Source: an uncultured Candidatus Saccharibacteria bacterium
Lineage (GTDB): Bacteria > Patescibacteriota > WWE3 > UBA101185 > UBA10185
Direction: 5' to 3'
NCBI GenBank assembly: GCA_964387275.1
Contig: CAYLVW010000001.1
Span: 227,436-291,435, forward strand
DNA length: 64,000 nt
Shown here: in pieces, positions 5,339-57,956 of the stretch
Position numbering within the stretch: the stretch's first letter is position 1
Layout: each line of letters opens with the position of its first letter
The notes under the pieces: model-generated
What the model was told of the DNA's origin: nothing
Database searches by the model: none
What the model saw: the letters and a program-made list of their open reading frames with translations, nothing else
Made by a program: the position numbers and the translations under genes

Positions 5339-5490
5339 TATAGATATTGTTTACACACTTTTAATATCCTGGAGTAGTGAGGATTTTTTGGTTTTAAGAT
5401 TTTGTTTTTATTCCAGTATCTTTCTTAATTCAAGTTAATCTTTATTTTTACCTTTGTCTAAGTAGATTCGGGTTTTATTTGTATTGACAG

Positions 5491-5601: not shown

Positions 5602-6015
5602 ATGCAATTATTTCTTGGAGAGTACCAACCAAATATCACAGAGGGATTTCGTCTTGCACTGCCTAAAAAGATGAGAGATCAGATACGAGGTGAAGAGATT
5701 GTACTCTCCAGGGGATTTGAAAAGTGCATATCAATATACGACAAAGAAGAATGGGTAAAGGTTTATGAAAAAGAGTCTGCTGGAGGTTCTATAACAGACT
5801 TAAGATCTAGGGATATAAAAAGATATATGTTTGGGTTGGCTATAGAAACTACAATTGATTCTCAAGGAAGGGTTGTACTTCCGGCGACCTTAAGGGATTA
5901 CGCAGAGTTAAATAAAGAAACAACTATTGTCGGTGCTGGGGATCACATTGAAGTTTGGGATAAGGTTAACTGGGAGAAACACCTAGAGTTTATAGCTTCC
6001 AGACTTACTAGTTAG
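5602..6015 (+). CDS. mraZ: Transcriptional regulator MraZ
   Basis: 137 aa with duplicated MraZ/SpoVT-AbrB-type halves, encoded immediately upstream of rsmH in a dcw cluster. Confidence 0.8.
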   Translation: MQLFLGEYQPNITEGFRLALPKKMRDQIRGEEIVLSRGFEKCISIYDKEEWVKVYEKESAGGSITDLRSRDIKRYMFGLAIETTIDSQGRVVLPATLRDYAELNKETTIVGAGDHIEVWDKVNWEKHLEFIASRLTS

Positions 6016-18796: not shown

Positions 18797-19426
18797 TTAG
18801 TTAAATTTTCTGATTACACCTGTGACTACACCCTGCACTATTATGGAATCAGCATCTACTATTATAGGATCCATTTCGTCATTAGCCGGTTGCAGTCTGA
18901 TTTTTCCGCCTTTTTCTTTGTAAAATCTTTTCAGGGTGGCAAAGCCATTGTCTACTAGTGCTACAACAATATCTCCGTTGTTTGCTGTGTCTTGCTGTTT
19001 AATAACTACGAAATCATCATTAAATATTCCATCTTTGATCATAGAGTCCCCTTTAACTTGTAGGACATAACATCTTTTAACTTTTGAAACTAAGTCTGGG
19101 GATACTGTCACAGTTGCTAAGGGATTTTCAATTGCTTCGATAGGTTTGCCTGCTGCAATATAGCCTACGAGGGGTAGTTCTATACCTAAAAGGGCAGCAT
19201 TAATTTTTTCGTCGAGTATTTCTATTCCTCTAACAGCGCCCTCAAATCTTCTGATAAGACCTTTTTTAACGAGGGCTTGTAAATGTTCATGTACTGTTGC
19301 CAGAGATGACAAGCTCATTGCATTGGCTATTTCTTGGAGAGTTGGTGAAGTACCATTAAGTTGTATGTATTGGGATATATAATCCAAAATTTGCTTTTGT
19401 TTTTTATATACTGTAACTGGACTCAT
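18797..19426 (-). CDS. lexA: LexA repressor (SOS regulator; wHTH + S24 peptidase)
   Basis: N-terminal winged helix, Ala-Gly self-cleavage site (VGYIAAGKPIEA), Ser nucleophile (VKGDSMIKDG) and Lys general base (ATLKRFYKE). Confidence 0.9.
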   Translation of the reverse strand: MSPVTVYKKQKQILDYISQYIQLNGTSPTLQEIANAMSLSSLATVHEHLQALVKKGLIRRFEGAVRGIEILDEKINAALLGIELPLVGYIAAGKPIEAIENPLATVTVSPDLVSKVKRCYVLQVKGDSMIKDGIFNDDFVVIKQQDTANNGDIVVALVDNGFATLKRFYKEKGGKIRLQPANDEMDPIIVDADSIIVQGVVTGVIRKFN

Positions 19427-19547
19427 TATATTCTCCTCATAGAAGATTCCGTATTTTAAACTCTACGGGTTCTTCTCTTATAGCGAGTTGTACTTGTGCT
19501 TATCGTTAGGTAGGCACTTAATCTTCCCGCTACAAAAATAAATTAAT

Positions 19548-19608
19548 GGTTACCGAATTTTTGTATTTTCTTCGGTAATGTAATATTACCGAATAGTTCC
19601 CGAAAGTC
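19548..19608. promoter_or_regulatory. Candidate SOS operator region in the divergent lexA/uvrB promoter: overlapping palindromes TTACCGAA-N13-TTCGGTAA and TTCGGTAA-N7-TTACCGAA, plus a CCGAA direct repeat
   Basis: Read directly from the sequence between divergently transcribed lexA (-) and uvrB (+). TTACCGAA lies at 19550-19557, TTCGGTAA at 19571-19578 and TTACCGAA at 19586-19593. Confidence 0.45.
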
Positions 19609-19683
19609 AACAAAGATTTTCCTTATTTTAGGTTATTACCTCCAACACCAGATTTATTTACGAAGGTAACCCGAAATGATATT

Positions 19684-21786
19684 ATGTTAGTTATGTTTGA
19701 TTTAAAGTCTAACTACAGTCCTACAGGAGATCAACCAAATGCTATAAACCAACTTACAGAGTGGGTTTTGAAAGACAAACGTAATCAAACTCTTTTAGGT
19801 GTTACAGGATCGGGAAAAACATTTACAATAGCAAATCTAATAAAAAATGTAAGCAAACCCACTCTTATTATTTCTCATAATAAAACTCTCGCCGCTCAGC
19901 TTTACCAAGAGTTTAGAGATTTTTTTCCAAACAACGCTGTAGAGTATTTTGTTAGCTACTATGACTACTATCAGCCCGAAAGTTACATTCCTCAGACAGA
20001 TACCTACATCGAAAAGGATGCAGACATTAACGAGAAGATAGATAAACTTAGATTATCGGCAACTACATCACTCATGACCAGAAAAGATGTTATTGTAATA
20101 TCTTCAGTGTCTTGTATTTATAACCTAGGGTCGCCAGCTGAATACTCAAAAATGGCATTAGAGCTACAAATAGGTATGAAACTCAGACAAGTGGATTTAT
20201 TAAAACGACTTTCTCAAATTTATTATGATAGATCAGAGTTTGAATTCAAAAGAGGAACTTATAGAGTGCGTGGCGAGTACGTAGATGTTTATTTAGCCTA
20301 CACTGATTTTGGTATTAGAATAGAAATATTAAATGACATACTAATGGATATATCTTATTTTGACCCATTGACTGGTAACATTATTGATAAAAGTATTTTA
20401 CCCCAGGAAAGAAGAGGTAGCCACACAAAATCTATAACTCAAGATCCGAAAGATTATGTCGAACAGCATATGGTGCGAGGGAACTATGCCTACATCTACC
20501 CAGCGAAGCATTATATTGCACCCGAGGAGCGTAGAAAGTCAGGTATGGAGCAGATACAAGAAGATTTAAGTACACAGCTTAATCTTCTTAGAAGTCAAGG
20601 AAAAATGATAGAGGCTTATAGGTTAGAGCAGAGGACAAACTATGATTTAGAAATGATTCAGGAGATCGGGTATTGTAAGGGTATTGAAAATTACTCCAGA
20701 TATTTTGACGGTAGGGAGGTTGGTGGTACACCTTATACTTTAATGGACTTTTTTCCAAAAGATTACTTATTAGTAATTGATGAGTCTCATATCACAGTGC
20801 CACAAGTGAGGGGCATGTTTAATGGCGATAGGGCAAGAAAGCAAACATTAGTTGACTATGGATTTAGACTACCATCAGCATTAGATAATAGACCGCTTAA
20901 TTTTGAGGAGTTTTTGCGTAAAGTAAACCAAACAGTTTTTACATCAGCAACCCCTACAGATTGGGAATTAAGCATGTCTGAGGGACGTATAGCCGAGCAA
21001 ATCATACGACCTACTGGAATTGTAGATCCTACTATCAAGATACTACCTAGTAACGGTCAGATTGATGACCTTTTTGCAAGAATTAAACAAAGAATTTCTA
21101 ACTCACAAAGAGTCTTAGTTACTACACTTACCAAAAGAATGGCTGAAGAGCTTGCTTCTTTTCTTGTCGAAAAGGGTATTAAAGTTACATACCTGCACTC
21201 AGATATAGATACTTTGGAAAGAACAAATATCTTGGACGATCTGCGCAAGGGTAATTACGATGTGCTTGTGGGAATCAACTTGTTAAGAGAGGGTTTAGAT
21301 TTACCCGAAGTTTCACTTGTAGCTATTTTAGATGCAGATAAAGAAGGTTTTCTAAGAAGTGATACTTCTCTTATTCAAACTATGGGAAGAGCAGCTCGGC
21401 ATATTCTTGGGGAAGTTGTTATGTATGCAGATAATATTACTGGCAGCATGAGAAGAGCAATAGATGAGGTAGATAGAAGAAGAAAGATTCAAACACAGTA
21501 TAATCTTGATCATGGAATTGTTCCAACCCAAATTAATAAACCCATTAGAGCAAAGTTAATAGATGATGAGATTGAAGAAACCACTACCTCTAAACAAAAG
21601 AGAGGTAGCAAAAAGATTACTGAAAATGAAGATTATACAATCTTACCACCGCCAGAAATTAAAAAGCTTGTAAAAAAGTATACAGAGATGATGAAGTTTG
21701 AGGCAGAAAGTTTGAATTTTGAAAAAGCCGCTGATCTTAGAGATAAACTTCGTGATATCAAAAAGCATTTAGACTCAATTGAGTAA
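19684..21786 (+). CDS. uvrB: Excinuclease ABC subunit B (UvrB)
   Basis: N-terminus SPTGDQPNAINQL...TLLGVTGSGKTFT (Walker A), helicase motifs and a C-terminal UVR domain. The true start may be the ATG at 19693 (MFDLKS...). Confidence 0.9.
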   Translation: MLVMFDLKSNYSPTGDQPNAINQLTEWVLKDKRNQTLLGVTGSGKTFTIANLIKNVSKPTLIISHNKTLAAQLYQEFRDFFPNNAVEYFVSYYDYYQPESYIPQTDTYIEKDADINEKIDKLRLSATTSLMTRKDVIVISSVSCIYNLGSPAEYSKMALELQIGMKLRQVDLLKRLSQIYYDRSEFEFKRGTYRVRGEYVDVYLAYTDFGIRIEILNDILMDISYFDPLTGNIIDKSILPQERRGSHTKSITQDPKDYVEQHMVRGNYAYIYPAKHYIAPEERRKSGMEQIQEDLSTQLNLLRSQGKMIEAYRLEQRTNYDLEMIQEIGYCKGIENYSRYFDGREVGGTPYTLMDFFPKDYLLVIDESHITVPQVRGMFNGDRARKQTLVDYGFRLPSALDNRPLNFEEFLRKVNQTVFTSATPTDWELSMSEGRIAEQIIRPTGIVDPTIKILPSNGQIDDLFARIKQRISNSQRVLVTTLTKRMAEELASFLVEKGIKVTYLHSDIDTLERTNILDDLRKGNYDVLVGINLLREGLDLPEVSLVAILDADKEGFLRSDTSLIQTMGRAARHILGEVVMYADNITGSMRRAIDEVDRRRKIQTQYNLDHGIVPTQINKPIRAKLIDDEIEETTTSKQKRGSKKITENEDYTILPPPEIKKLVKKYTEMMKFEAESLNFEKAADLRDKLRDIKKHLDSIE

Positions 21787-21884: not shown

Positions 21885-23915
21885 TTGATTAATATTGTAA
21901 TTACTAAAACTAAAAGTTTATTCCACGATATATTTTACCTTTCTCTCTTTTTAGTAGTAGGTCTTGGTAATGTTATTCTTAGACTATTCAGAGAAGTTTT
22001 TAGGAAGGTTAGATTTAAAGGTACTGTAGTAACTCAAAATAAATTTAAAACAGTAAGTAAAACTAAAGCTTCCAAAGCTAAAACAAAGTATCATTTGATA
22101 GAATCTATTGGGATTTTTATGTTAGGCTCTGTATTTTCCCTCGTCTTTATTTTTATACCAATTCAAGTGTATTTCTGGTACAGAGACTTACCAAACCCGG
22201 AACTACTAGTTAGCAGAGTCAGAAATAGTAATACAACGATTCTTGATAGATATGGTAGGCTTCTTTACAAACTAAATGAAGATAGTAGCTATGAGAACGT
22301 ACACTTTACACAGATTCCTGACTATGTAATTAAGTCAACATTAGCAATAGAAGATCACGAGTTTTATAATCACTATGGTTTTAGACCACTTAGTATAATA
22401 AGGGCAGCAAGAGCAAACATAGTTTATGATCAAATCCAAGGCGGTTCTACTATTACTCAACAGCTAGTAAAAAACATATTATTATCTCCAGAAAAAACAT
22501 ACTCAAGAAAACTTAAAGAAGTTGTAGTTTCTGTTTTGGTTGAGAAAAGGTACACAAAAGATCAAATACTTGAAATGTATCTAAACAATATTTCATACGG
22601 TGGTTCTTCAATAGGTATCCAAGCTGCGTCAAAAAGTTTTTTTGGAAAAAATGTATGGGATTTATCTTTGGCTGAAGCTACTATGCTCGCAGGACTTCCT
22701 TCAGCTCCCTCAGTTTATTCTCCGACAACAGGAGATTTTGATAAAGCAAAGCAACGTCAACTTTATGTACTTGAGAGGATGGTATCCCTTGGTTATATCA
22801 ATAGGGAGCAGGCAGATGAAGCAATTAAAGATGAGTTAGTATTTATCACCCCTTCAAGTTATATTAGGGCACCTCATTTTGTGAATTATGTACTAGACTT
22901 AGTAAATGAAAAATATGGTAGTGTGTATGTGGCTTCTGGTGGGCTTACTATAAGGACAAGTATAGATTTAGATTTGCAAGAACAAGTTCAGTCCATTGTT
23001 CGATCTGGTGTAGAAAAAAGCAAGTATTTGAATATTACAAACGGCGCAGCATTAGTACTTGATAAAAACAGAAATGAAATTTTAGCTTATGTAGGTTCCT
23101 ATAATTATTCAGTTCCTGGATGGGGAAACTACGATATTATAAGAGCAAAAAGGCAACCTGGTTCTTCCATTAAACCAATCACTTATGCTTTAGCGTTATC
23201 AAAAGGCATGACTGCTGAATCAAAAATATTGGATGATGAGTTAGTAATAAAAAATGATTGGGAAACTTATAAACCTGTTAACTACGACGGTAAATATCAC
23301 GGGGAAGTTACACTCACTTCTGCTTTAGCGAACTCTTACAATATACCAGCGGTTAAACTTACACAGAAGTACGGTGCTTATAGTGTAGTCAATCTAGGTA
23401 AAATAATGGGTCTTAGTAGTTGGAATCCTGACGAAGTAGATTATGGTGTATCTGTTACTCTAGGAGGTAAGGAAGTAACTATGTTGGAACTGGCTAATGT
23501 TTATGCGACTTTTGCAAGACAAGGTTATTTTAGTGATATAGACCCGATAATTTCAATAACCGATAATAATGGATACGAAATATATTCAAATGACGAAGAT
23601 ATTGTATCAGTGGGAGAGCAAGTTTTAGATAAAAATATAGCTCAGACAATAACTAATATACTTTCAAGTAACACAGCGAGAACTCCTGCATTTGGTTCAA
23701 GATCTTCTCTTGTGGTAACGGGTCATACTGTGTCTGTAAAAACAGGCACTACCGACAAAAAGAGAGACAACTGGACTCTTGGTTACGATGAGAATTACGT
23801 TGTGTCCGTTTGGGTAGGAAATAACAATAACATTCCTATGAACCAAAACTTAGCCAGTGGTTTATCTGGTGCAGCTCCTATTTGGAATCAGATTTTTAAT
23901 GCTTTATATAAGTAA
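21885..23915 (+). CDS. Class A penicillin-binding protein (bifunctional GT51 transglycosylase/transpeptidase, PBP1A-like)
   Basis: GT51 motifs (EDHEFYNHYGF, GGSTITQQLVKN) and transpeptidase motifs SxxK (GSSIKP) and KTG (VKTGTT), with an N-terminal TM anchor. Confidence 0.85.
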   Translation: MINIVITKTKSLFHDIFYLSLFLVVGLGNVILRLFREVFRKVRFKGTVVTQNKFKTVSKTKASKAKTKYHLIESIGIFMLGSVFSLVFIFIPIQVYFWYRDLPNPELLVSRVRNSNTTILDRYGRLLYKLNEDSSYENVHFTQIPDYVIKSTLAIEDHEFYNHYGFRPLSIIRAARANIVYDQIQGGSTITQQLVKNILLSPEKTYSRKLKEVVVSVLVEKRYTKDQILEMYLNNISYGGSSIGIQAASKSFFGKNVWDLSLAEATMLAGLPSAPSVYSPTTGDFDKAKQRQLYVLERMVSLGYINREQADEAIKDELVFITPSSYIRAPHFVNYVLDLVNEKYGSVYVASGGLTIRTSIDLDLQEQVQSIVRSGVEKSKYLNITNGAALVLDKNRNEILAYVGSYNYSVPGWGNYDIIRAKRQPGSSIKPITYALALSKGMTAESKILDDELVIKNDWETYKPVNYDGKYHGEVTLTSALANSYNIPAVKLTQKYGAYSVVNLGKIMGLSSWNPDEVDYGVSVTLGGKEVTMLELANVYATFARQGYFSDIDPIISITDNNGYEIYSNDEDIVSVGEQVLDKNIAQTITNILSSNTARTPAFGSRSSLVVTGHTVSVKTGTTDKKRDNWTLGYDENYVVSVWVGNNNNIPMNQNLASGLSGAAPIWNQIFNALYK

Positions 23916-24078
23916 GTTTAATATATTTCCCTAGTAGTATGGTTTCTAGTAATATCTGGGTAGAAGTTTTACTTTTAACTAGCACCAAAATAGTATACCT
24001 AGGTTTTAAGTGTGTCCTATTTATTATTGGAAAAATTCCTACTTCACAAACCCGAAATTATCCCGTAAACTCATTTTT

Positions 24079-27000
24079 ATGTCATCAGCTCTGGACTCTA
24101 TTATTGTTAAAGGTGCAAAGCAGCACAACCTCAAAAATGTTGATCTTGTGATACCAAAAAATAAGTTTGTCGTTTTTACCGGTGTTTCAGGTTCTGGTAA
24201 ATCTTCTCTTGCTATGGACACCATATACGCTGAAGGTCAACGAAGATATGTTGAGAGCCTTTCTGCCTATGCTAGGCAATTTCTTGGTGTTATGGATAAG
24301 CCAGACGTTGAAAAAATCGAAGGCCTATCCCCCGCTATTGCTATAGACCAAAAGACTACTTCAAGAAATCCAAGATCTACTGTAGGTACAATCACAGAAG
24401 TTTATGATTTTCTTAGACTTTTGTACGCTCGGGTTGGGCATCCCCATTGTCCTACTTGTGGTAGGGAAATTAGCAGGCAAAGTACTGATCAGATAGTAGA
24501 AAGAATTTTTACTCTTGCATCCCAAGAACCCGATTTTAAAAAAGAAAAAGGTGTGAGATTTATGATTATGTCCCCTGTTGTTAGAGACAGAAAAGGAGAG
24601 TTTTCTACTCTCTTTGATAATTTAAAACGCCAAGGAATATTTAAAGCTCGAATCGACGGTGTTATCAGAAATCTTGGTGACCATCTTGAGCTGCTTAAAA
24701 ATAATAAACACACTGTAGAGGCTATTATTTCTAGAAATATTATCAGTTCTAAAAAGCTTAAAGATTCAGAAGACGGGAAATCTTTAAGATCCTCGATTAC
24801 TCAAAGTATTGAGGCTGCACTAAGGCTTAGTAATGGCAATGCTATGTTATCTATTATTAAAGACAGCTCATTCGATTTTCCAGAAAATCCGAAAGAAGTT
24901 GAAGATCATTTATTTTCTGAAAACTTTGCCTGTCCTTTTTGTAATATTTCTTTACCCGATATAGAACCCAGAACCTTCTCGTTTAACTCTCCTCATGGTG
25001 CCTGTCCTTCCTGTGATGGGCTAGGCACTCAGCTTGATATAGACGAAACTACTATCCTAAATAAAGAATTGTCTATAAGTGAGGGAGGGGTGCTTCCTTG
25101 GAACAAACTTTTTGAACATACAACTTGGACCTCTATGGTTATAGACTCTGTTGCAAAAGACTATGGATTCTCTTTGGATACACCTATAAAAGATCTATCC
25201 AAGGAGCATCTGGAGCTCATACTTTACGGACCCAAAGAACTTAAAAAGTTCAAAGTTACATATAATACTAAAGACGGTAACAGTGGTAACTTCAATTCTA
25301 AGTTTGAGGGAGTGATTCCTAATTTATTAAGAAGGCACAAAGAGACCGAATCAGATTATGTACGTGGAGAGATTGAAAAATACATGGTAAGAGAAGCATG
25401 TCCTGTATGTAAGGGTGCGAGATTAAAGAAAGAGGCTATGTCTGTAGTAATTGATAGTAAAAGTATTTTTGAAAGTACTGAACAGCCCATCGATGTTTTT
25501 GCTTCTTGGGTAAGTCATATAGAGAACGAGGTATTTTCTGAAAGAGAGAACTCTATTGCTGAAGGAATACTAAAAGAAATAAATTACAGAGTTAAATTTT
25601 TAGTTGATGTTGGTTTGTCTTATCTAACTTTGAGTAGAGCATCTTCTCACTTATCAGGTGGGGAAGCACAGCGTATTAGATTGGCATCACAAATAGGTTC
25701 TGGTTTGTCAGGAGTGTTATATGTACTTGATGAGCCGTCTATTGGTCTTCATCAAAGAGACCAAGGTAAACTTATAACTACACTAAAGCATCTAAGAGAT
25801 CTTGGTAACACCGTACTTGTAGTCGAACATGATACAGAAACAATGCTTGAATCTGACTATATTTTTGATTTTGGTCCTGGAGCCGGAGAGCATGGGGGTA
25901 AGATAGTATCAGAAGGCACCCCAGAGCAAATAAAAAAAGATAAGAATTCTGCTACTGGGGACTATCTTTCTGGAAGGAAAGTGGTAGGAGGTTTATATAA
26001 CAAAATAAAAAAAGACCTCGAAGAGCTCGATCCAGAGTCTGGTTTTTCCAAAACTGTTAAAGAAAAAATTTTAGGTAAATCCCTTGTTCTTAAAGGAGCT
26101 ACAGGAAGGAATCTCAAAAACGCTAATCTTGAAGTTCCTCTTGGGAAATTTGTTTGTGTTACTGGGGTTTCAGGTTCTGGGAAATCCACCTTAGTTATGG
26201 ATACTTTGTATAGAGCTTTAAGGCATGAGTTTGGTTTAAAAAATGACGAGAAGCCAGAGCCTTTTAAATCTTTAACTGGGACAGAGAATATTACTCAAAT
26301 GATAGCCATTGATCAGGCACCAATTGGACGTACTCCTAAGTCTAATCCAGCGACTTACACTAAGGTTTTTGATCACATTAGAGAACTTTTCTCTAAGACC
26401 GAGGAAGCCAGAATTAGAGGTTATAAAGAAGGTAGGTTTAGTTTTAATGTTAAGGGTGGCAGGTGTGAAGCCTGTGGCGGTGAAGGTCAGATTAAAATTG
26501 AAATGCAGTTTATGCCCGACGTTTATGTGAATTGTGAGGTTTGTCAGGGTAAGAGATACAATCGTGAAGCTTTGGAGATTTTTTATAAAGGTAAAACAAT
26601 TGCAGATGTTTTGGATATGACTGTTGATGAGGCGTTGAATTTTTTTGCAAACATACCTCAGATTTACAGGAAGTTGAAAACAATTCAGGATGTCGGTTTG
26701 GGATATATCAGGCTAGGCCAACCTGCACCTACTATGTCTGGCGGTGAGGCTCAGAGGGTTAAGCTTGCATTAGAGCTTTCTAAAAGATCTTATGGCAGTG
26801 CTTTATATATTCTTGATGAGCCTACTACAGGTTTGCACTTCTCTGATCTTGAAAAACTAGTTGTAATTATCAAAAGGCTTACAGCTAAGGGTAATACTGT
26901 TCTTGTTATAGAGCACAACTTAGATCTTATTGCTAATGCTGATTGGGTAATTGATTTAGGTCCTGAAGGTGGTACAAATGGAGGTAGGGTTCTATTTAAT

Positions 27001-27219: not shown

Positions 27220-28605
27220 TTATTCTTGTACAATAGCTCTGTAGATTCTTTCATGTTCACCGGAGATTTTTTTAGAATTTTTCCTTCCACCGCCCCTATT
27301 ATTTGCCCTAACAAGCATGGTATCAATATTATCTCTTATCGCTGTTTTGGCTAAATCATCTATTTCCTTAGAAGTTACAGGTAGAGTTTGAATAATTACA
27401 TTATTTCCTCGTTTTTTATAATACTCAAAGATTGCTTTTAAATCCTCTGGGTCAGAATCTGCTGGAAATCTTAATACTACGGGAAATTCTCCATATTGAT
27501 TCTCTAGTCCTATCTGAGCGTTTATAAAATTGCCGAAATTTTGAATTTTATCTATATCGGCCCCTAAATTGAAAGTATTTCCGCTGTTTGATTTGTAGGA
27601 TACCTTGTGTCCTAGGAAATTAACATCTCTCATTGCTGTTGCAAGTGCTTTTGTTTCTTCAGGCTTGTAACATTTTACTTCTACTATTCCTCTTAGTTCA
27701 TCGCCATGTAGGATAAATGCATCAGGCATAGTAAATTCTTCTTTGAGAGTTGTCTCATGTTGTGAGTTTCCAGAGTTACTGCTCCATCCTGAGAACCCAG
27801 TTATATATTCATGTTGAGCAAGTTGTATTCTTTTTCGCTCAGCCCATTTTCTGTAAAGTAAAGCTTTAACATCCCCAGATAACTCCCTATTTTCTCTGAT
27901 TTCAGTAAGTTTAGGGTCAATACCTATTGTGTTTATTGGTATAGGTCCTCCAGGAATTCCTGTCCTTATGGGTGAGATTGCAAAACCTTGTTGTAAAACT
28001 CCTGATATTATTCTAGCTTTGTTTCTACCGTATGGGCTATCTGAGCCTCCAATAGTTGAAGTACCTTCTAACTCACTGATATCTCCAAGAGTTCTGCTCT
28101 GTAGAGCTTCTATACTATATTGAGCGCTTATTCTTTCTCCTGTGAATCCTCTTATGTTCCCTTCTAATGTTTCTTTTATAACAGCTTCATTTATACTCCC
28201 ATTTCGATAGTTGCCTTCAATTTGAGCAATTAAATCCAAAAAAGTATAGTTATTCCATTTCCAACTGGGACTTGTTGCAACCTCTAGTTCTTTTTCTTTA
28301 GTGATAGGTGATGTTTCAGCACTTAGTATTTTTCGACCCAGGAGCTCCCTAATCCTGGATTTTATTCTCGCTCTTGTTTCCGGCTTTTCTGCTATGGTTT
28401 CTAGTACATTATTGCCTGTTGGTGTTTGTGTGATTGCTGCTATTGAAGGTTTTGTTACTGCTGTAGTAGGTTCACTAATAGGTGTTACATGCGGTGGTTT
28501 GCTAAGCTCATTTGTCTGGGGAGGGTTATCAAGTCCAGCAATAAAAAGAGCATCCTTAGTAAGTTGTTCTCTATCTTCTGTTGTAAGTTCAAAGCTTAAC
28601 TTCAT
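27220..28605 (-). CDS. Hypothetical protein (461 aa) with no signal peptide and a possible PD-(D/E)xK-like motif in the C-terminal half
   Basis: Long ORF overlapping the upstream transglutaminase-like gene by 4 nt (operon). The segment ILHGDELRGIVEVKCYK resembles a D...ExK nuclease core, but the match is weak. Confidence 0.5.
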   Translation of the reverse strand: MKLSFELTTEDREQLTKDALFIAGLDNPPQTNELSKPPHVTPISEPTTAVTKPSIAAITQTPTGNNVLETIAEKPETRARIKSRIRELLGRKILSAETSPITKEKELEVATSPSWKWNNYTFLDLIAQIEGNYRNGSINEAVIKETLEGNIRGFTGERISAQYSIEALQSRTLGDISELEGTSTIGGSDSPYGRNKARIISGVLQQGFAISPIRTGIPGGPIPINTIGIDPKLTEIRENRELSGDVKALLYRKWAERKRIQLAQHEYITGFSGWSSNSGNSQHETTLKEEFTMPDAFILHGDELRGIVEVKCYKPEETKALATAMRDVNFLGHKVSYKSNSGNTFNLGADIDKIQNFGNFINAQIGLENQYGEFPVVLRFPADSDPEDLKAIFEYYKKRGNNVIIQTLPVTSKEIDDLAKTAIRDNIDTMLVRANNRGGGRKNSKKISGEHERIYRAIVQE

Positions 28606-30326
28606 TTTGTATCAAAAGTGTATGTTTCTCCACTAAAATCTTTAAACTCTACAATACTATCTTTTTTAGTATATATTGTTTTTGACTCAAGTGGCCCAAT
28701 TTCTATTTTATCTTCTGTTATGGCGTAAATTTTCCTGCCTGTTAGATTTTTGATTTTGTAAGCTGTTTGACCCTTTAAATATTTTAAAATATTAAAGCCT
28801 AGTGTTGGTTTGATTTCTATTTTAATACTATTACTATCAAGTTTTTCAATATCGGATGCATTGTCATTAGTTTTTATATCTATTTGTTTTTCGTTATCAT
28901 CAAACCTGTATGCTCCTGCTGGTAGAGGTAATTCACTATTTATACCTTTGGTTACAAACGCTATATGGTTTGTGTCAAGCTTAGTGAAATAATCAAGACC
29001 TGAGGTGTTTCCCCAAGTCGGGTCTATCTGTAGCCAACCTAATTTTGGGTCATAAAATTCAGCCCAAGCATGCAGGAAATCTCCTGAGCTGATTTCTGAT
29101 GATACTGGGGTGCTTGAAGGTGTTGATGGTAGCGCGTAACCATTGATTTCTCTAGCGGGTATTCCCATAGCTCTTGCGATGGCAACAAATGTATCTGTAA
29201 ATTCCATGCAAGCTAGAGTATTGGCACCTTGTAACGTAGCTCTTGCTCCTTTTCTTGAGATTGTTTCTTCTTGTGTTTCTGAGTTATATTTAAGCCTTTC
29301 TGAAATATCTTTATATATAAGTTTTGCATTTTCAGTAACAGAGAGGTCAGGGTTTTTTATACTTTTTGCGAGATTTCTAACTTCTTGAGATCCTGTTTCC
29401 CAATACTTTTGCGAAGATGTGTATTGTTTTACTAATTCTTGTGGTAAATCACTGAAATTACCTCCTTCGTTTGGATCAAATTGAAAAGGAATTACTTTTA
29501 TTTGACCAATAACATTTATATAGATTTCAGATTTAGGAGCTAATTTGTAGTGAGCAATAAAATTTCCGTCTTTATCTGTTTTTACATACTCGGGGGTGGG
29601 GTCAATATTTTTGAAAATTACTTGTTGGTACCTATTTATTTCAGGAGGTAGTGCTACCGTTTGATACGATGTAATTACAGAAGTATTTTTAAGGTTGTAT
29701 TTTATATTAAAATCATATATCTGAAATTCACCAAAAGCTGCTGAGACACCACTTTCTAAAGAGTTTTTATCAAAATAGTATATGGTGCCAGAGCTTATGA
29801 CTTCTTCTTTTATTGGGGTAGGGGACACAAAAAGTTTTTTACCATAAGTATTAGGGATTTGAATAGTTATATGGTAATCCTCTATAGAATCAAACTCGTT
29901 TACTGGCGGTATTGAGATAGAATATATTTTTCCCATTTTTGTCGCTAAGTCTTTAGTTTTGTAGCTTATGTTAATTTCATTTTTTTTGTCTATTCCTATT
30001 TGTTGTTCATCAAATAATGCCTTGATGATAGTTTCGTTGCCGCCTTCTGAGGTTTCGATATTTAGTTTTTCCTTTGCATCTGTAGCCTGAACATCAGAGA
30101 TTTCTATATTTTTTACTATAAGGGTAAAAGAAGTAGGTATAATGTCTTTTTGTTTGTTAATAATTTCTACCCTTTGGTTTACTTCTGCCACAGCAGTATC
30201 TGAAAATATATATTTTGTATCGTAACTTGTTAGAAATTTAAGTTCTTCTGCTTTTAAGTTTCCGCTAAGTAATGTTACAGCAGAGACTATTAATAGGGAT
30301 TTTATTATAAAGCTATAAATAGGCAT
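28602..30326 (-). CDS. Transglutaminase-like superfamily protein (secreted/membrane-anchored; Cys-His-Asp core)
   Basis: Signal/TM start MPIYSFIIKSLLIVSAVTLL, then a large extracytoplasmic domain with the core LACMEFTD (Cys)...FLHAWAEFYDP (His)...IDPTWG (Asp). The ORF track extends to 30425, but the inner ATG fits a signal peptide and avoids overlap with uvrC. Confidence 0.7.
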   Translation of the reverse strand: MPIYSFIIKSLLIVSAVTLLSGNLKAEELKFLTSYDTKYIFSDTAVAEVNQRVEIINKQKDIIPTSFTLIVKNIEISDVQATDAKEKLNIETSEGGNETIIKALFDEQQIGIDKKNEINISYKTKDLATKMGKIYSISIPPVNEFDSIEDYHITIQIPNTYGKKLFVSPTPIKEEVISSGTIYYFDKNSLESGVSAAFGEFQIYDFNIKYNLKNTSVITSYQTVALPPEINRYQQVIFKNIDPTPEYVKTDKDGNFIAHYKLAPKSEIYINVIGQIKVIPFQFDPNEGGNFSDLPQELVKQYTSSQKYWETGSQEVRNLAKSIKNPDLSVTENAKLIYKDISERLKYNSETQEETISRKGARATLQGANTLACMEFTDTFVAIARAMGIPAREINGYALPSTPSSTPVSSEISSGDFLHAWAEFYDPKLGWLQIDPTWGNTSGLDYFTKLDTNHIAFVTKGINSELPLPAGAYRFDDNEKQIDIKTNDNASDIEKLDSNSIKIEIKPTLGFNILKYLKGQTAYKIKNLTGRKIYAITEDKIEIGPLESKTIYTKKDSIVEFKDFSGETYTFDTK

Positions 30327-30348
30327 GACTTTGTATATAATACAAGAT

Positions 30349-31740
30349 ATGTTTGCTCTAACAAAACCCGAAATTAAAGAAGCTGTTAATAATTTACCCA
30401 AAGTACCCGGTGTATATATATACAAAGATATTAACGGTCAGGTCATATATGTAGGTAAAGCAAAAAACCTGAGGAACAGAGTTCGTTCATATTTTATTGA
30501 TAACCTTGACCTTGGAAGTAAAACAAGGGCTCTTGTTGAAAAAATTGATAGTATAAACCACATTGAAGTTACCTCTGAACTTGAGGCTTTAATATTAGAG
30601 GCTGAGTTAATCAAACTTCATAAACCTTACTATAATATAAATCTTAAAGATGATAAGTCCTACCTTTATATAGTCGTAAGAAATGAAAAGATTTTTTCGT
30701 CATTTTTTGAGAAAGAGGTGAAACTGCCTAAAATAATTCTTGCCAGAAAAAGTGATCTTGACAATGAGGATATCCCATTTGGTCCTTACCCAGATGCTAC
30801 CACAGCAAGATATATTGTACGAAGCCTTAGAAAGGTTTTTCCATATAGGGATTGTAGTACAACTAAATTTGAACGTCACTCGAAATTAAATAAAGCATGT
30901 CTTTATGGGCACCTTGGGTTATGCCAAGCTCCTTGTACGACTACTGGCACCATAAATCCCAAAGAGGCTATATCAAACTATAAGAAAGATATTTCTAGGT
31001 TAAAAGATATATTATCGGGTAGAGGTTCTGCCCTTCTTCTTGAATTGAAACGTAAAATGCACGACTATTCCGAAGCCGAGGAGTATGAATCTGCGGCAAT
31101 CTATAGAAATATTATCTCTAAATTTGAGTATGTAAGGCAAAATTTCAGAACAGCACAGTCTTATATTGATAACCCATATTTAGTAGAAGATACTTTAGCT
31201 AGGTCTTTGGCAGATCTTAAAGTCTACCTTCCTTTTATTACTAATGATTTGCAACGTATCGAATGTTACGATATTTCAAATATTTCAGGTAAAGAATCAG
31301 TTGGAGCTATGACAGTATCTATAAATGGAAGACTGGAAAATTCAAAGTATAGAAAATTTAAGATTAAGATGAAGAACGAACCTAACGATTATGGTATGTT
31401 GCAAGAAGTTCTTAGAAGACGGCTCAAACGGGGCATTAATAGTGACTTAGGTTGGGAATTGCCCGAGTTACTTGTTATAGACGGGGGGAAGGGCCAAGTA
31501 GGCGCAATACAGCAAGTGCTTAATGAATATGAACTGGACATTCCTCTTATAGGTCTTGCTAAAAGATTTGAGACCATAGTGTACATTGAGGGTGGTGAGT
31601 TTAAGGAGCTACTATTAGACAGGGGCAATGAAGGCTTAAAACTGCTACAAAGATTGCGGGACGAGGCGCATAGATTTGGTCAGAAATATCATCACCAATT
31701 AAGGCTTAAGAAGATCGAGTTTACCAAAACTAAGAAATAG
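30349..31740 (+). CDS. uvrC: Excinuclease ABC subunit C (UvrC), short form lacking the C-terminal (HhH)2 domain
   Basis: GIY-YIG (PGVYIYKDINGQVIYVGKAKNLRNRVRSYF), a UVR motif, and an RNase H-like endonuclease domain ending at ...RDEAHRFGQKYH. Total length is about 464 aa; an alternative start is 30325. Confidence 0.8.
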   Translation: MFALTKPEIKEAVNNLPKVPGVYIYKDINGQVIYVGKAKNLRNRVRSYFIDNLDLGSKTRALVEKIDSINHIEVTSELEALILEAELIKLHKPYYNINLKDDKSYLYIVVRNEKIFSSFFEKEVKLPKIILARKSDLDNEDIPFGPYPDATTARYIVRSLRKVFPYRDCSTTKFERHSKLNKACLYGHLGLCQAPCTTTGTINPKEAISNYKKDISRLKDILSGRGSALLLELKRKMHDYSEAEEYESAAIYRNIISKFEYVRQNFRTAQSYIDNPYLVEDTLARSLADLKVYLPFITNDLQRIECYDISNISGKESVGAMTVSINGRLENSKYRKFKIKMKNEPNDYGMLQEVLRRRLKRGINSDLGWELPELLVIDGGKGQVGAIQQVLNEYELDIPLIGLAKRFETIVYIEGGEFKELLLDRGNEGLKLLQRLRDEAHRFGQKYHHQLRLKKIEFTKTKK

Positions 31741-34888: not shown

Positions 34889-36058
34889 ATGAAGAGGAGC
34901 TACTTTAAACACGACAAAGACGATAAAGGTCTGATTTATGCAGTTGGATTTGTACTAACTTTTGGGTTAGTAATGATCTATAATTCCACTGCTGTTTATT
35001 CTCATGATGTTTTTGGAGGTGCCTATAAATTTGTTTTCTTGCAATTGATATGGATTATTTTAGGGTCAATTGGTTTTTGGTTTTTTTATAATTTCGACTA
35101 CAAGTATCTATCAAAATTTGCACTCCCTGTATTTATTATTAGTATGGTTTTTTTAGGTATGGTGGCTGTGGCGGGAATATTACCATGTAGCATGAACATA
35201 CCTTTTGTGCCTTGTATTAATGGGGCAAATAGATGGTTTTACCTAAATCCAGATCCGTTACCAAGAATACCTTTTCTTGGTGTTTTGGGTTTTCAGCCAA
35301 GTGAGTTTGCAAAGTTAGCCATGATTATTATCTTAGCTGTAATATTTTCAAAGGTAACTCTCCTTAATAAAAATGATTGGGATTGGTTTTATAAGTACTT
35401 AATCTATTGTATTAGTGTTTCAGTACTAATTATTCTTCAGCCTAATATGTCTACAGCAGTGTTGGTTGCTACTATAGGGACAATAATATATGTATCTTCG
35501 GGGGCTTTTTTAAAACCACTTTTGGTAAGTTCACCCATAGTGGTGCTTCTTGGAGTTTCTGCAATGCTGTTGTCGCCTTACAGAAGAGATAGGTTTATGA
35601 GTTTCTTATCCAGTGATCCAGCACAAGCTGAGGGTGCTAGTTATCATGTTAAGCAGATACTAATAGCTCTAGGATCTGGTGGTATTTTTGGCGTAGGATT
35701 TGGTCAATCCAGACAAAAATATCAGTATCTTCCTGAAGTCTCAGCAGATTCAATTTTTGCAATTATTGGTGAAGAATTAGGTTTTATTGGAACCACTCTA
35801 GTTATTTTAGTTTTCCTCTACATTTTTTACAAAGGTTTCAAGATTGCTGTTAAAGCTCGGGATTCTTTTGGTAGGCTTCTGGCAATCGGGATAATAAGTT
35901 GGTTAGGTTTTCAGTTTTTTGTTAATATTGCCGCAATGACCAAACTCATACCTTTAACAGGAGTGCCGCTGCCTTTAGTTTCCTATGGCGGCTCTTCCAC
36001 CTTATTTATGCTTGTATCTTTAGGGATATTGGCTAATATAGGAAGAAATTCGAGCTAA
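34889..36058 (+). CDS. ftsW: SEDS-family peptidoglycan glycosyltransferase (FtsW/RodA)
   Basis: 10-TM protein with PSEFAKLAMII and ...GSGGIFGVGFGQS...SDSIFAIIGEELGFIG motifs, in the dcw position between mraY and murG. Confidence 0.8.
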   Translation: MKRSYFKHDKDDKGLIYAVGFVLTFGLVMIYNSTAVYSHDVFGGAYKFVFLQLIWIILGSIGFWFFYNFDYKYLSKFALPVFIISMVFLGMVAVAGILPCSMNIPFVPCINGANRWFYLNPDPLPRIPFLGVLGFQPSEFAKLAMIIILAVIFSKVTLLNKNDWDWFYKYLIYCISVSVLIILQPNMSTAVLVATIGTIIYVSSGAFLKPLLVSSPIVVLLGVSAMLLSPYRRDRFMSFLSSDPAQAEGASYHVKQILIALGSGGIFGVGFGQSRQKYQYLPEVSADSIFAIIGEELGFIGTTLVILVFLYIFYKGFKIAVKARDSFGRLLAIGIISWLGFQFFVNIAAMTKLIPLTGVPLPLVSYGGSSTLFMLVSLGILANIGRNSS

Positions 36059-57686: not shown

Positions 57687-57956
57687 ATGGCCCATAAAAA
57701 AGCAGGATCATCAAAAGCAACACAAAAAGGAAACGTTAGAGGTAAAAGACTTGGAATTAAAGCTAGTGGAGGATCTGTAGTAAAACCGGGTCAAATCATT
57801 GTAAGACAAAGAGGTAAGGATTTTAATCCTGGAGAGAATGTGGACATGGGTAAAGATTTCACAATCTTTTCTTTGATTGCTGGAGTGGTTGAGTTTGTAA
57901 ACGTGACTAGAAAAAAGAAAAAAATAAACGTAATTGATCCTTCGGTTCTAGAGTAG
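57687..57956 (+). CDS. rpmA: 50S ribosomal protein bL27
   Basis: [43 protein letters not shown] is the canonical bL27. Confidence 0.9.

Follow-up and report, generated by a model that had tools for sequence, protein, structure and literature searches.

A tandem direct repeat as predicted LexA operator at the lexA, uvrB and uvrA promoters of a Saccharibacteria-like lineage

In the window, that is the whole stretch of 64,000 nucleotides of DNA analysed here, uvrB, uvrA and uvrC carry the same short sequence at their starts, which raises the question of what this sequence is. Searching both strands, we found exactly three copies of AACCCGAAAT, all on the plus strand, at 19668-19677, 24049-24058 and 30365-30374, at the starts of uvrB, uvrA and uvrC, respectively. 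The base composition of the window predicts about 0.14 copies. The extended 13-mer AAACCCGAAATTA is identical at uvrA (24048-24060) and uvrC (30364-30376), its counterpart at uvrB reads TAACCCGAAATGA (19667-19679), and a related TTCCCGAAAGT lies in the lexA-uvrB spacer (19597-19607). The initial annotation had described one 13-mer at the 5' ends of all three genes, and this description is confirmed; its coordinates are correct for uvrA and uvrC and are each off by one for the uvrB copy and the spacer element. Repetition of 10-mers as such is common, with 1242 canonical 10-mers occurring at least three times in the window. However, out of 2476 strand-specific repeated 10-mers, AACCCGAAAT alone has every copy near a gene start, all three falling within -45 to +60 of a start on the sense strand. 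Position, not repetition, sets AACCCGAAAT apart, and this confinement, along with the low expected count, upholds the earlier judgement that chance is an unlikely origin. Variants of AACCCGAAAT with one mismatch are about three times commoner than in dinucleotide shuffles (13 in the window against 4.5 expected). Almost none of them lie at gene starts, and nearly all fall within coding sequence and lack the tandem partner described below, for which reasons we rejected them as sites. Their excess is probably an effect of codon usage, which dinucleotide shuffles do not model.

The three uvr genes had been regarded as unlinked. Rather, they form an 11-kb cluster that opens with lexA, from which uvrB diverges. 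On the minus strand, lexA (18797-19426) encodes a protein of 209 amino acids with the Pfam domains LexA_DNA_bind (PF01726) and Peptidase_S24 (PF00717). Pfam likewise identifies uvrB (plus strand; the ORF begins at an ATG at 19684 and the conserved start is the ATG at 19693), a class A penicillin-binding protein (21885-23915), uvrA (plus strand, ATG at 24079) and uvrC (plus strand, 30349-31740). Between uvrA and uvrC, the minus strand carries a gene of unknown function and a transglutaminase-like gene (Transglut_core; 28602-30327) that is divergent from uvrC. The LexA of the window aligns over its full length to the E. coli and T. maritima LexA structures. In this alignment, IAAGKP matches the Ala-Gly cleavage site of E. 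coli (VAAGEP), GDSM matches the segment of the catalytic serine (GMSM), and LKRF that of the catalytic lysine (VKRL). As judged from these features, the lexA product is a full canonical LexA, with winged helix-turn-helix, S24 peptidase, cleavage site and Ser/Lys dyad. The closest reference genome is that of an uncultured Candidatus Saccharibacteria bacterium (L001), whose UvrB is 76% identical. The UvrC homologs with a taxon name belong to Saccharimonadales or to other Patescibacteria (CPR), the group that includes Saccharibacteria. The usual core target of SOS regulation, recA, gave no match when the window and all gathered loci of relatives were searched with E. coli RecA (tblastn). The UvrC of the window is short (463 amino acids), with GIY-YIG, UVR and RNase H-like endonuclease domains and no C-terminal helix-hairpin-helix domain found by Pfam; its best 120 homologs, mostly from Patescibacteria, are similarly short, all having 428-524 amino acids.

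The repeated 10-mer is one unit, and the better-conserved one, of a two-unit direct repeat with an 11-bp period and the consensus TTACCGAA-N4-ACCCGAA. This arrangement follows from the window itself. In the 257-nt spacer between lexA and uvrB, CCGAA occurs five times, where 0.2 occurrences are expected; CGAA-N7-CGAA has only two matches in the window, both in this spacer; and at uvrA, CCCGTA follows AACCCGAAAT at a distance of 11 bp. The units occur in the variants CCGAA, CCCGAA, CCCAAA, ACGAA and CCGTA.

To define the repeat further we turned to relatives. A metagenome scan with LexA gave 80 loci whose LexA proteins are 57-88% identical to that of the window, and in many of them the gene order lexA <-> uvrB - pbp - uvrA is kept. 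A de novo EM motif search on 76 non-identical lexA upstream regions took its seeds from three sequences, at every third 20-mer, and settled on CCGAATATTACCCGAAGATG, which is present in nearly all 76 regions. From 64 of these lexA sites, with the window excluded, we built a matrix with the consensus TTACCGAATATTACCCGAAG. Scored in this way, the lexA promoter carries a site of at least 12 bits in 70 of 76 relatives, regardless of whether the neighbour of lexA is uvrB, a transglutaminase-like gene or another gene. In the window, the matrix recognises two sites at lexA (22.0 and 15.4 bits), one at uvrB (14.4 bits) and one at uvrA (10.2 bits). Across 835 kb from 77 non-redundant loci it returned 116 matches of at least 14 bits, 108 of them at lexA, uvrB or uvrA promoters; the 8 matches elsewhere are comparable in number to the 9 found in shuffled DNA. 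We put down to chance a window match of 13.2 bits at 35855, which falls within an FtsW/RodA-family ORF.

The uvrA promoters of relatives provide an independent test of the motif, because they are never adjacent to lexA. Among 22 such promoters, 12 contain AACCCGAA and 12 contain the tandem, which occurs in 0.4% of random 90-nt windows. Of the uvrB promoters of relatives, 26 of 46 have the tandem as well, again against 0.4% of random windows, although this support depends in part on the training set, since lexA and uvrB have a common spacer in many loci. The initial annotation had held that a 10-mer common at random positions, or one that is not kept at uvr genes in relatives, would tell against a shared element. 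Neither describes the uvrA and uvrB sites, which are kept when the 5' regions of relatives are aligned; conservation of the uvrC copy is only patchy, being limited to close relatives and a single distant genome.

Consensus promoter scans place all of these sites on predicted sigma-70-type hexamers, be it in the spacer, on the -35 or just past the -10. The predicted lexA promoter (TTGACT-16-TAATAT, 19610-19583, minus strand) holds two candidate operators. O1, TTACCGAATAGTTCCCGAAA (19586-19605, plus strand, 22.0 bits), contains TTCCCGAAAGT, is conserved in the lexA upstream alignment and lies between the -35 (TTGACT, 19610-19605) and the -10 (TAATAT, 19588-19583). O2, TTACCGAAGAAAATACAAAA (19559-19578, minus strand, 15.4 bits), is inverted relative to O1 and sits just past the -10; the O2 element, as TACCGAAnAAAAtACAAA, is conserved in four relatives (L081, L082, L089 and L136). 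At uvrB, the predicted promoter consists of TTTACG (19657-19662) and, after 17 nt, TATTAT (19680-19685) with a TG extension at 19677-78. The candidate uvrB operator, TTTACGAAGGTAACCCGAAA (19657-19676, plus strand, 14.4 bits), whose second unit is the uvrB copy of AACCCGAAAT, overlaps this -35 and abuts the TG-extended -10. In line with this geometry, the uvrB promoters of many relatives have a tandem aCC(A/G)AA-N4-ACCC(G/A)AA placed 4-5 nt ahead of TGnTAnAAT.

At uvrA, the candidate operator, AACCCGAAATTATCCCGTAA (24049-24068, plus strand, 10.2 bits), occupies the 17-nt spacer between the predicted -35 (TTCACA, 24043-24048) and -10 (TAAACT, 24066-24071), and here the uvrA copy of AACCCGAAAT is the first unit. 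The second unit reads CCGTA, and the -10 opens with the TA of this unit, which accounts for CCGTA in place of CCGAA in most relatives as well. The same substitution explains the modest 10.2 bits that the matrix, with its lexA training sites, gives for this site. In the two relatives L162 and L163, whose UvrC proteins are 71-74% identical to that of the window, TACTTCACAAACCCGAAAnnATCCCGTAAACTCATTTTTATG at uvrA is invariant save for two inter-unit bases, and the sequence upstream of it cannot be aligned. At least 8 more distant relatives keep TTCACA-AACCCGAA-N5-(A/C)CCGTA-nAAT at uvrA. Relative to transcription, the site at lexA is oriented opposite to those at uvrA and uvrB.

The promoter predictions also bear on why the elements seem to be placed at translation starts. 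In uvrB, uvrA and uvrC, a -10-like hexamer ends 6-7 nt before the ATG (19680-19695, 24066-24081 and 30336-30351, respectively), and none of the three starts has a Shine-Dalgarno sequence. Because of this 7-nt gap between -10 and ATG and the absence of a Shine-Dalgarno sequence, the three genes are probably leaderless, so that operators embedded in their promoters appear to lie at translation starts. The same -10-to-ATG geometry recurs for lexA, uvrA and uvrC in many relatives. In the window, lexA has a leader and carries the Shine-Dalgarno sequence GAGGAG. This leader contains a 134-nt insertion (19427-19560, minus strand) that the closest relatives do not have. The 146-nt stretch around the insertion (19585-19440, minus strand) has neither a match in Rfam nor a similar sequence in the rest of the window or the relatives' loci; its predicted fold has three hairpins and -37.1 kcal/mol, compared with -18.9 for shuffled sequence (z = -5.4).

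Taken as a whole, the tandem repeat is, with good probability, the SOS (LexA) operator of this Saccharibacteria-like lineage, through which lexA, uvrB and uvrA would be repressed. LexA is the most likely binder by association, that is by an autoregulatory position combined with repair-gene targets. The presence of the site in the lexA promoter whatever the neighbouring gene is the signature expected of LexA autoregulation, and lexA, uvrA and uvrB are all SOS targets in E. coli. A LexA half-site had been among the options raised for the shared 13-mer. For uvrA and uvrB this option gains support, since the element is a unit of the tandem that is also found upstream of lexA in about 70 relatives; for uvrC the case is weak, at 6.2 bits in the window, which is under any reasonable cut-off.

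The positions of the sites suggest how such a repressor could act. We propose that one LexA dimer would bind each pair of units. At uvrA, the bound pair would fill the spacer between -35 and -10; at uvrB, it would cover the -35 region and abut the extended -10; and at lexA, two pairs would flank the -10. Because the operators are placed on core promoter elements, bound LexA is proposed to block RNA polymerase. Upon DNA damage, RecA-stimulated self-cleavage of LexA would free the sites and induce lexA, uvrB and uvrA. What is predicted here is SOS regulation of the ordinary kind, acting through a direct-repeat operator specific to the lineage. It places uvrA and uvrB under predicted SOS control in this lineage, and the matrix and promoter geometry together provide a well-supported operator model for DNA-damage regulation in an uncultivated lineage with reduced genomes. 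In practice, the model can be used to predict regulons in Saccharibacteria/CPR genomes.

The predicted arrangement resembles that of the E. coli SOS boxes in several respects: the repressor site, here a predicted one, overlaps the lexA, uvrA and uvrB promoters, there are two operators at lexA, and LexA itself is canonical in its winged helix-turn-helix, S24 peptidase, Ala-Gly site and Ser/Lys dyad. By contrast, the E. coli box is a palindrome, CTGT-N8-ACAG, which is absent from the promoters studied here, whereas the repeat in this lineage is direct, CCGAA-N6-CCGAA. Also unlike in E. coli, the promoters here look leaderless, and there is a candidate intragenic site in uvrC. The alphaproteobacterial operator GTTC-N7-GTTC is closer in architecture, with two units in the same orientation and an 11-bp period; its unit, GTTC/GAAC, differs from the (A/C)CCGAA found here, and GTTC-N7-GTTC is absent at these promoters, its single match in the window being an unrelated one at 57945. 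With the Gram-positive Cheo box, CGAAC-N4-GTTCG, the comparison of consensus sequences reveals a common CGAA core, in its half-site CGAAC and in our CCGAA. The palindromic arrangement of the Cheo box is absent here, and GAAC-N4-GTTC, allowing up to one mismatch, has no match at any of these promoters. Since none of the E. coli, alphaproteobacterial and Cheo boxes occurs at these promoters, we rejected them as the identity of the sites.

A direct repeat is not foreign to LexA. Seventeen motifs of LexA are on record, and some of them, like GTTC-N7-GTTC of the Alphaproteobacteria, are direct repeats (PMC8565304); a LexA that recognises a direct repeat in Patescibacteria has also been described (Sanchez-Osuna, Barbe and Erill 2017, Environ Microbiol 19:3465, as cited in PMC7739468). 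The likeness of our sites to that motif lies in the direct-repeat structure and the lineage, as the citing paper describes them. The operator may already be known for Patescibacteria, and because a direct-repeat LexA motif has by that account been reported for the group, the novelty of the operator as such is modest.

As the assignment to LexA is by association, the tandem could instead be the operator of some other transcription factor, for example a damage-response or cell-cycle regulator encoded elsewhere. Such a factor would account for a motif that is unlike every classical LexA box tested and for the site at the promoter of mraZ (see below), which is not a classical SOS target. We nevertheless consider it unlikely: a foreign regulator would have to occupy the lexA promoter in 70 of 76 relatives irrespective of the neighbouring gene, its further targets, uvrA and uvrB, belong to the classical SOS set, and LexA is known for many changes of motif, direct repeats included (PMC8565304). 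The overlap of every site with core promoter hexamers invites a different reading, in which the tandem is a general promoter feature, such as an UP-like element or a spacer element of housekeeping promoters, and the abundance of 10-mers that occur three times or more in the window might even point to a chance repeat. Both are very improbable and were rejected, because the matrix matches are specific to the lexA, uvrB and uvrA promoters and because AACCCGAAAT is the sole repeated 10-mer confined to gene starts. Strong matches off these promoters do not exceed the shuffle expectation in the whole 835 kb, no window promoter beyond the lexA and uvr sites has the tandem except that of mraZ, and the site tolerates either orientation relative to transcription, as lexA on the one hand and uvrA and uvrB on the other illustrate.

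The initial annotation had further allowed for an RNA-level element, which would be a leader structure, a riboswitch or an sRNA target common to the three mRNAs. The uvrC copy is indeed transcribed. By contrast, the sites at uvrA and uvrB lie upstream of the predicted transcription starts, and at lexA transcription runs on the strand opposite the element. Nor do the sites match any Rfam family (a search of the window yields only a tRNA), and the three regions fold no better than their shuffles, with z = +0.4, +1.0 and +1.7. We give an RNA element next to no credence, and LexA remains the preferred binder of the tandem.

How the uvrC copy fits this LexA reading is a separate matter. The candidate site, TGCTCTAACAAAACCCGAAA (30354-30373, plus strand, 6.2 bits), covers +6 to +25 of uvrC and combines one perfect unit, the copy of AACCCGAAAT, with one poor unit, CTCTAA. 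It lies within the gene, downstream of the predicted -10 (TATAAT, 30336-30341) and of the ATG at 30349, and directly upstream of the predicted -35 (TTGTTA, 30364-30359, minus strand) of the divergent transglutaminase-like gene, whose predicted promoter is TTGTTA-16-TATTAT. The start codons of the two genes are about 21 nt apart, and their promoters overlap face-to-face. The copy is a weak or marginal member of the operator set, and the arguments on whether it works as a weak site are about evenly balanced. It may equally be no LexA site for uvrC, being kept for the peptide TKPEI or for constraints on a leaderless 5' end, or serving the transglutaminase-like gene instead; we regard this as a serious possibility, just short of an even chance. 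In its favour, only one unit is good, and the 6.2 bits reached in the window drop to about 0 in L161, the closest relative. No site was found in 7-8 other uvrC genes examined, including those of L101, L126, L135, L142, L152, L168 and L169. The N-terminus MFA(L/Q)TKPE is confined to the 4 closest of the best 120 UvrC homologs, and the minus-strand promoter immediately adjoins the copy.

Other features of the uvrC start speak for constraint on the DNA. We compared four genomes whose UvrC identity is 71% or more and counted identical codons among those that encode an identical amino acid. Codons 3-13 of uvrC have the strongest synonymous conservation of the gene, with about 5/6 to 6/8 invariant against 17% gene-wide, whereas in these genomes uvrA has no such constraint on its 5' codons. 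The site scores 12.7 bits in L162 and 11.7 bits in L163, where its first unit reads CTCAAA. In L170, whose UvrC is 55% identical, an 11.6-bit tandem occupies the same +6 to +25 despite encoding a different N-terminal peptide. The synonymous conservation, the scores in L162 and L163 and the tandem in L170 therefore argue for a site at the level of DNA at uvrC, whichever gene it would control. A functional site could act on the transglutaminase-like gene no less than on uvrC. In six distant relatives (L127, L128, L131, L139, L147 and L149), homologs of this gene are divergent from lexA and have the lexA operator in common with it, which suggests that the transglutaminase-like gene is a conserved member of the predicted SOS regulon.

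The candidate sites at the transglutaminase-like gene and at mraZ are the only parts of this picture that would be new to a specialist. They raise the tentative, and on present evidence rather doubtful, idea that the LexA regulon reaches the mraZ-led cluster and the conserved membrane transglutaminase-like gene, with an operator inside the first codons of uvrC. If true, SOS induction would have a direct link to cell division and to envelope remodelling in Saccharibacteria, tiny episymbionts that have no known SOS division inhibitors. The mraZ site, AATACAAATAAAACCCGAAT (5466-5485, minus strand, 15.7 bits; the plus strand reads ATTCGGGTTTTATTTGTATT), is intergenic, lies upstream of mraZ (5602-6015)-rsmH-ftsL-ftsI and overlaps the -35 of the predicted mraZ promoter, TTGACA (5484-5489). 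Its position suggests that direct SOS control of this division and cell-wall cluster is possible. In relatives, the sequence further upstream is not conserved, and TTCGGGTTTTnTTTGTATTGACA itself is kept in L164-L167, whose MraZ proteins are 60-73% identical to that of the window, with scores of 13.1-15.7 bits.
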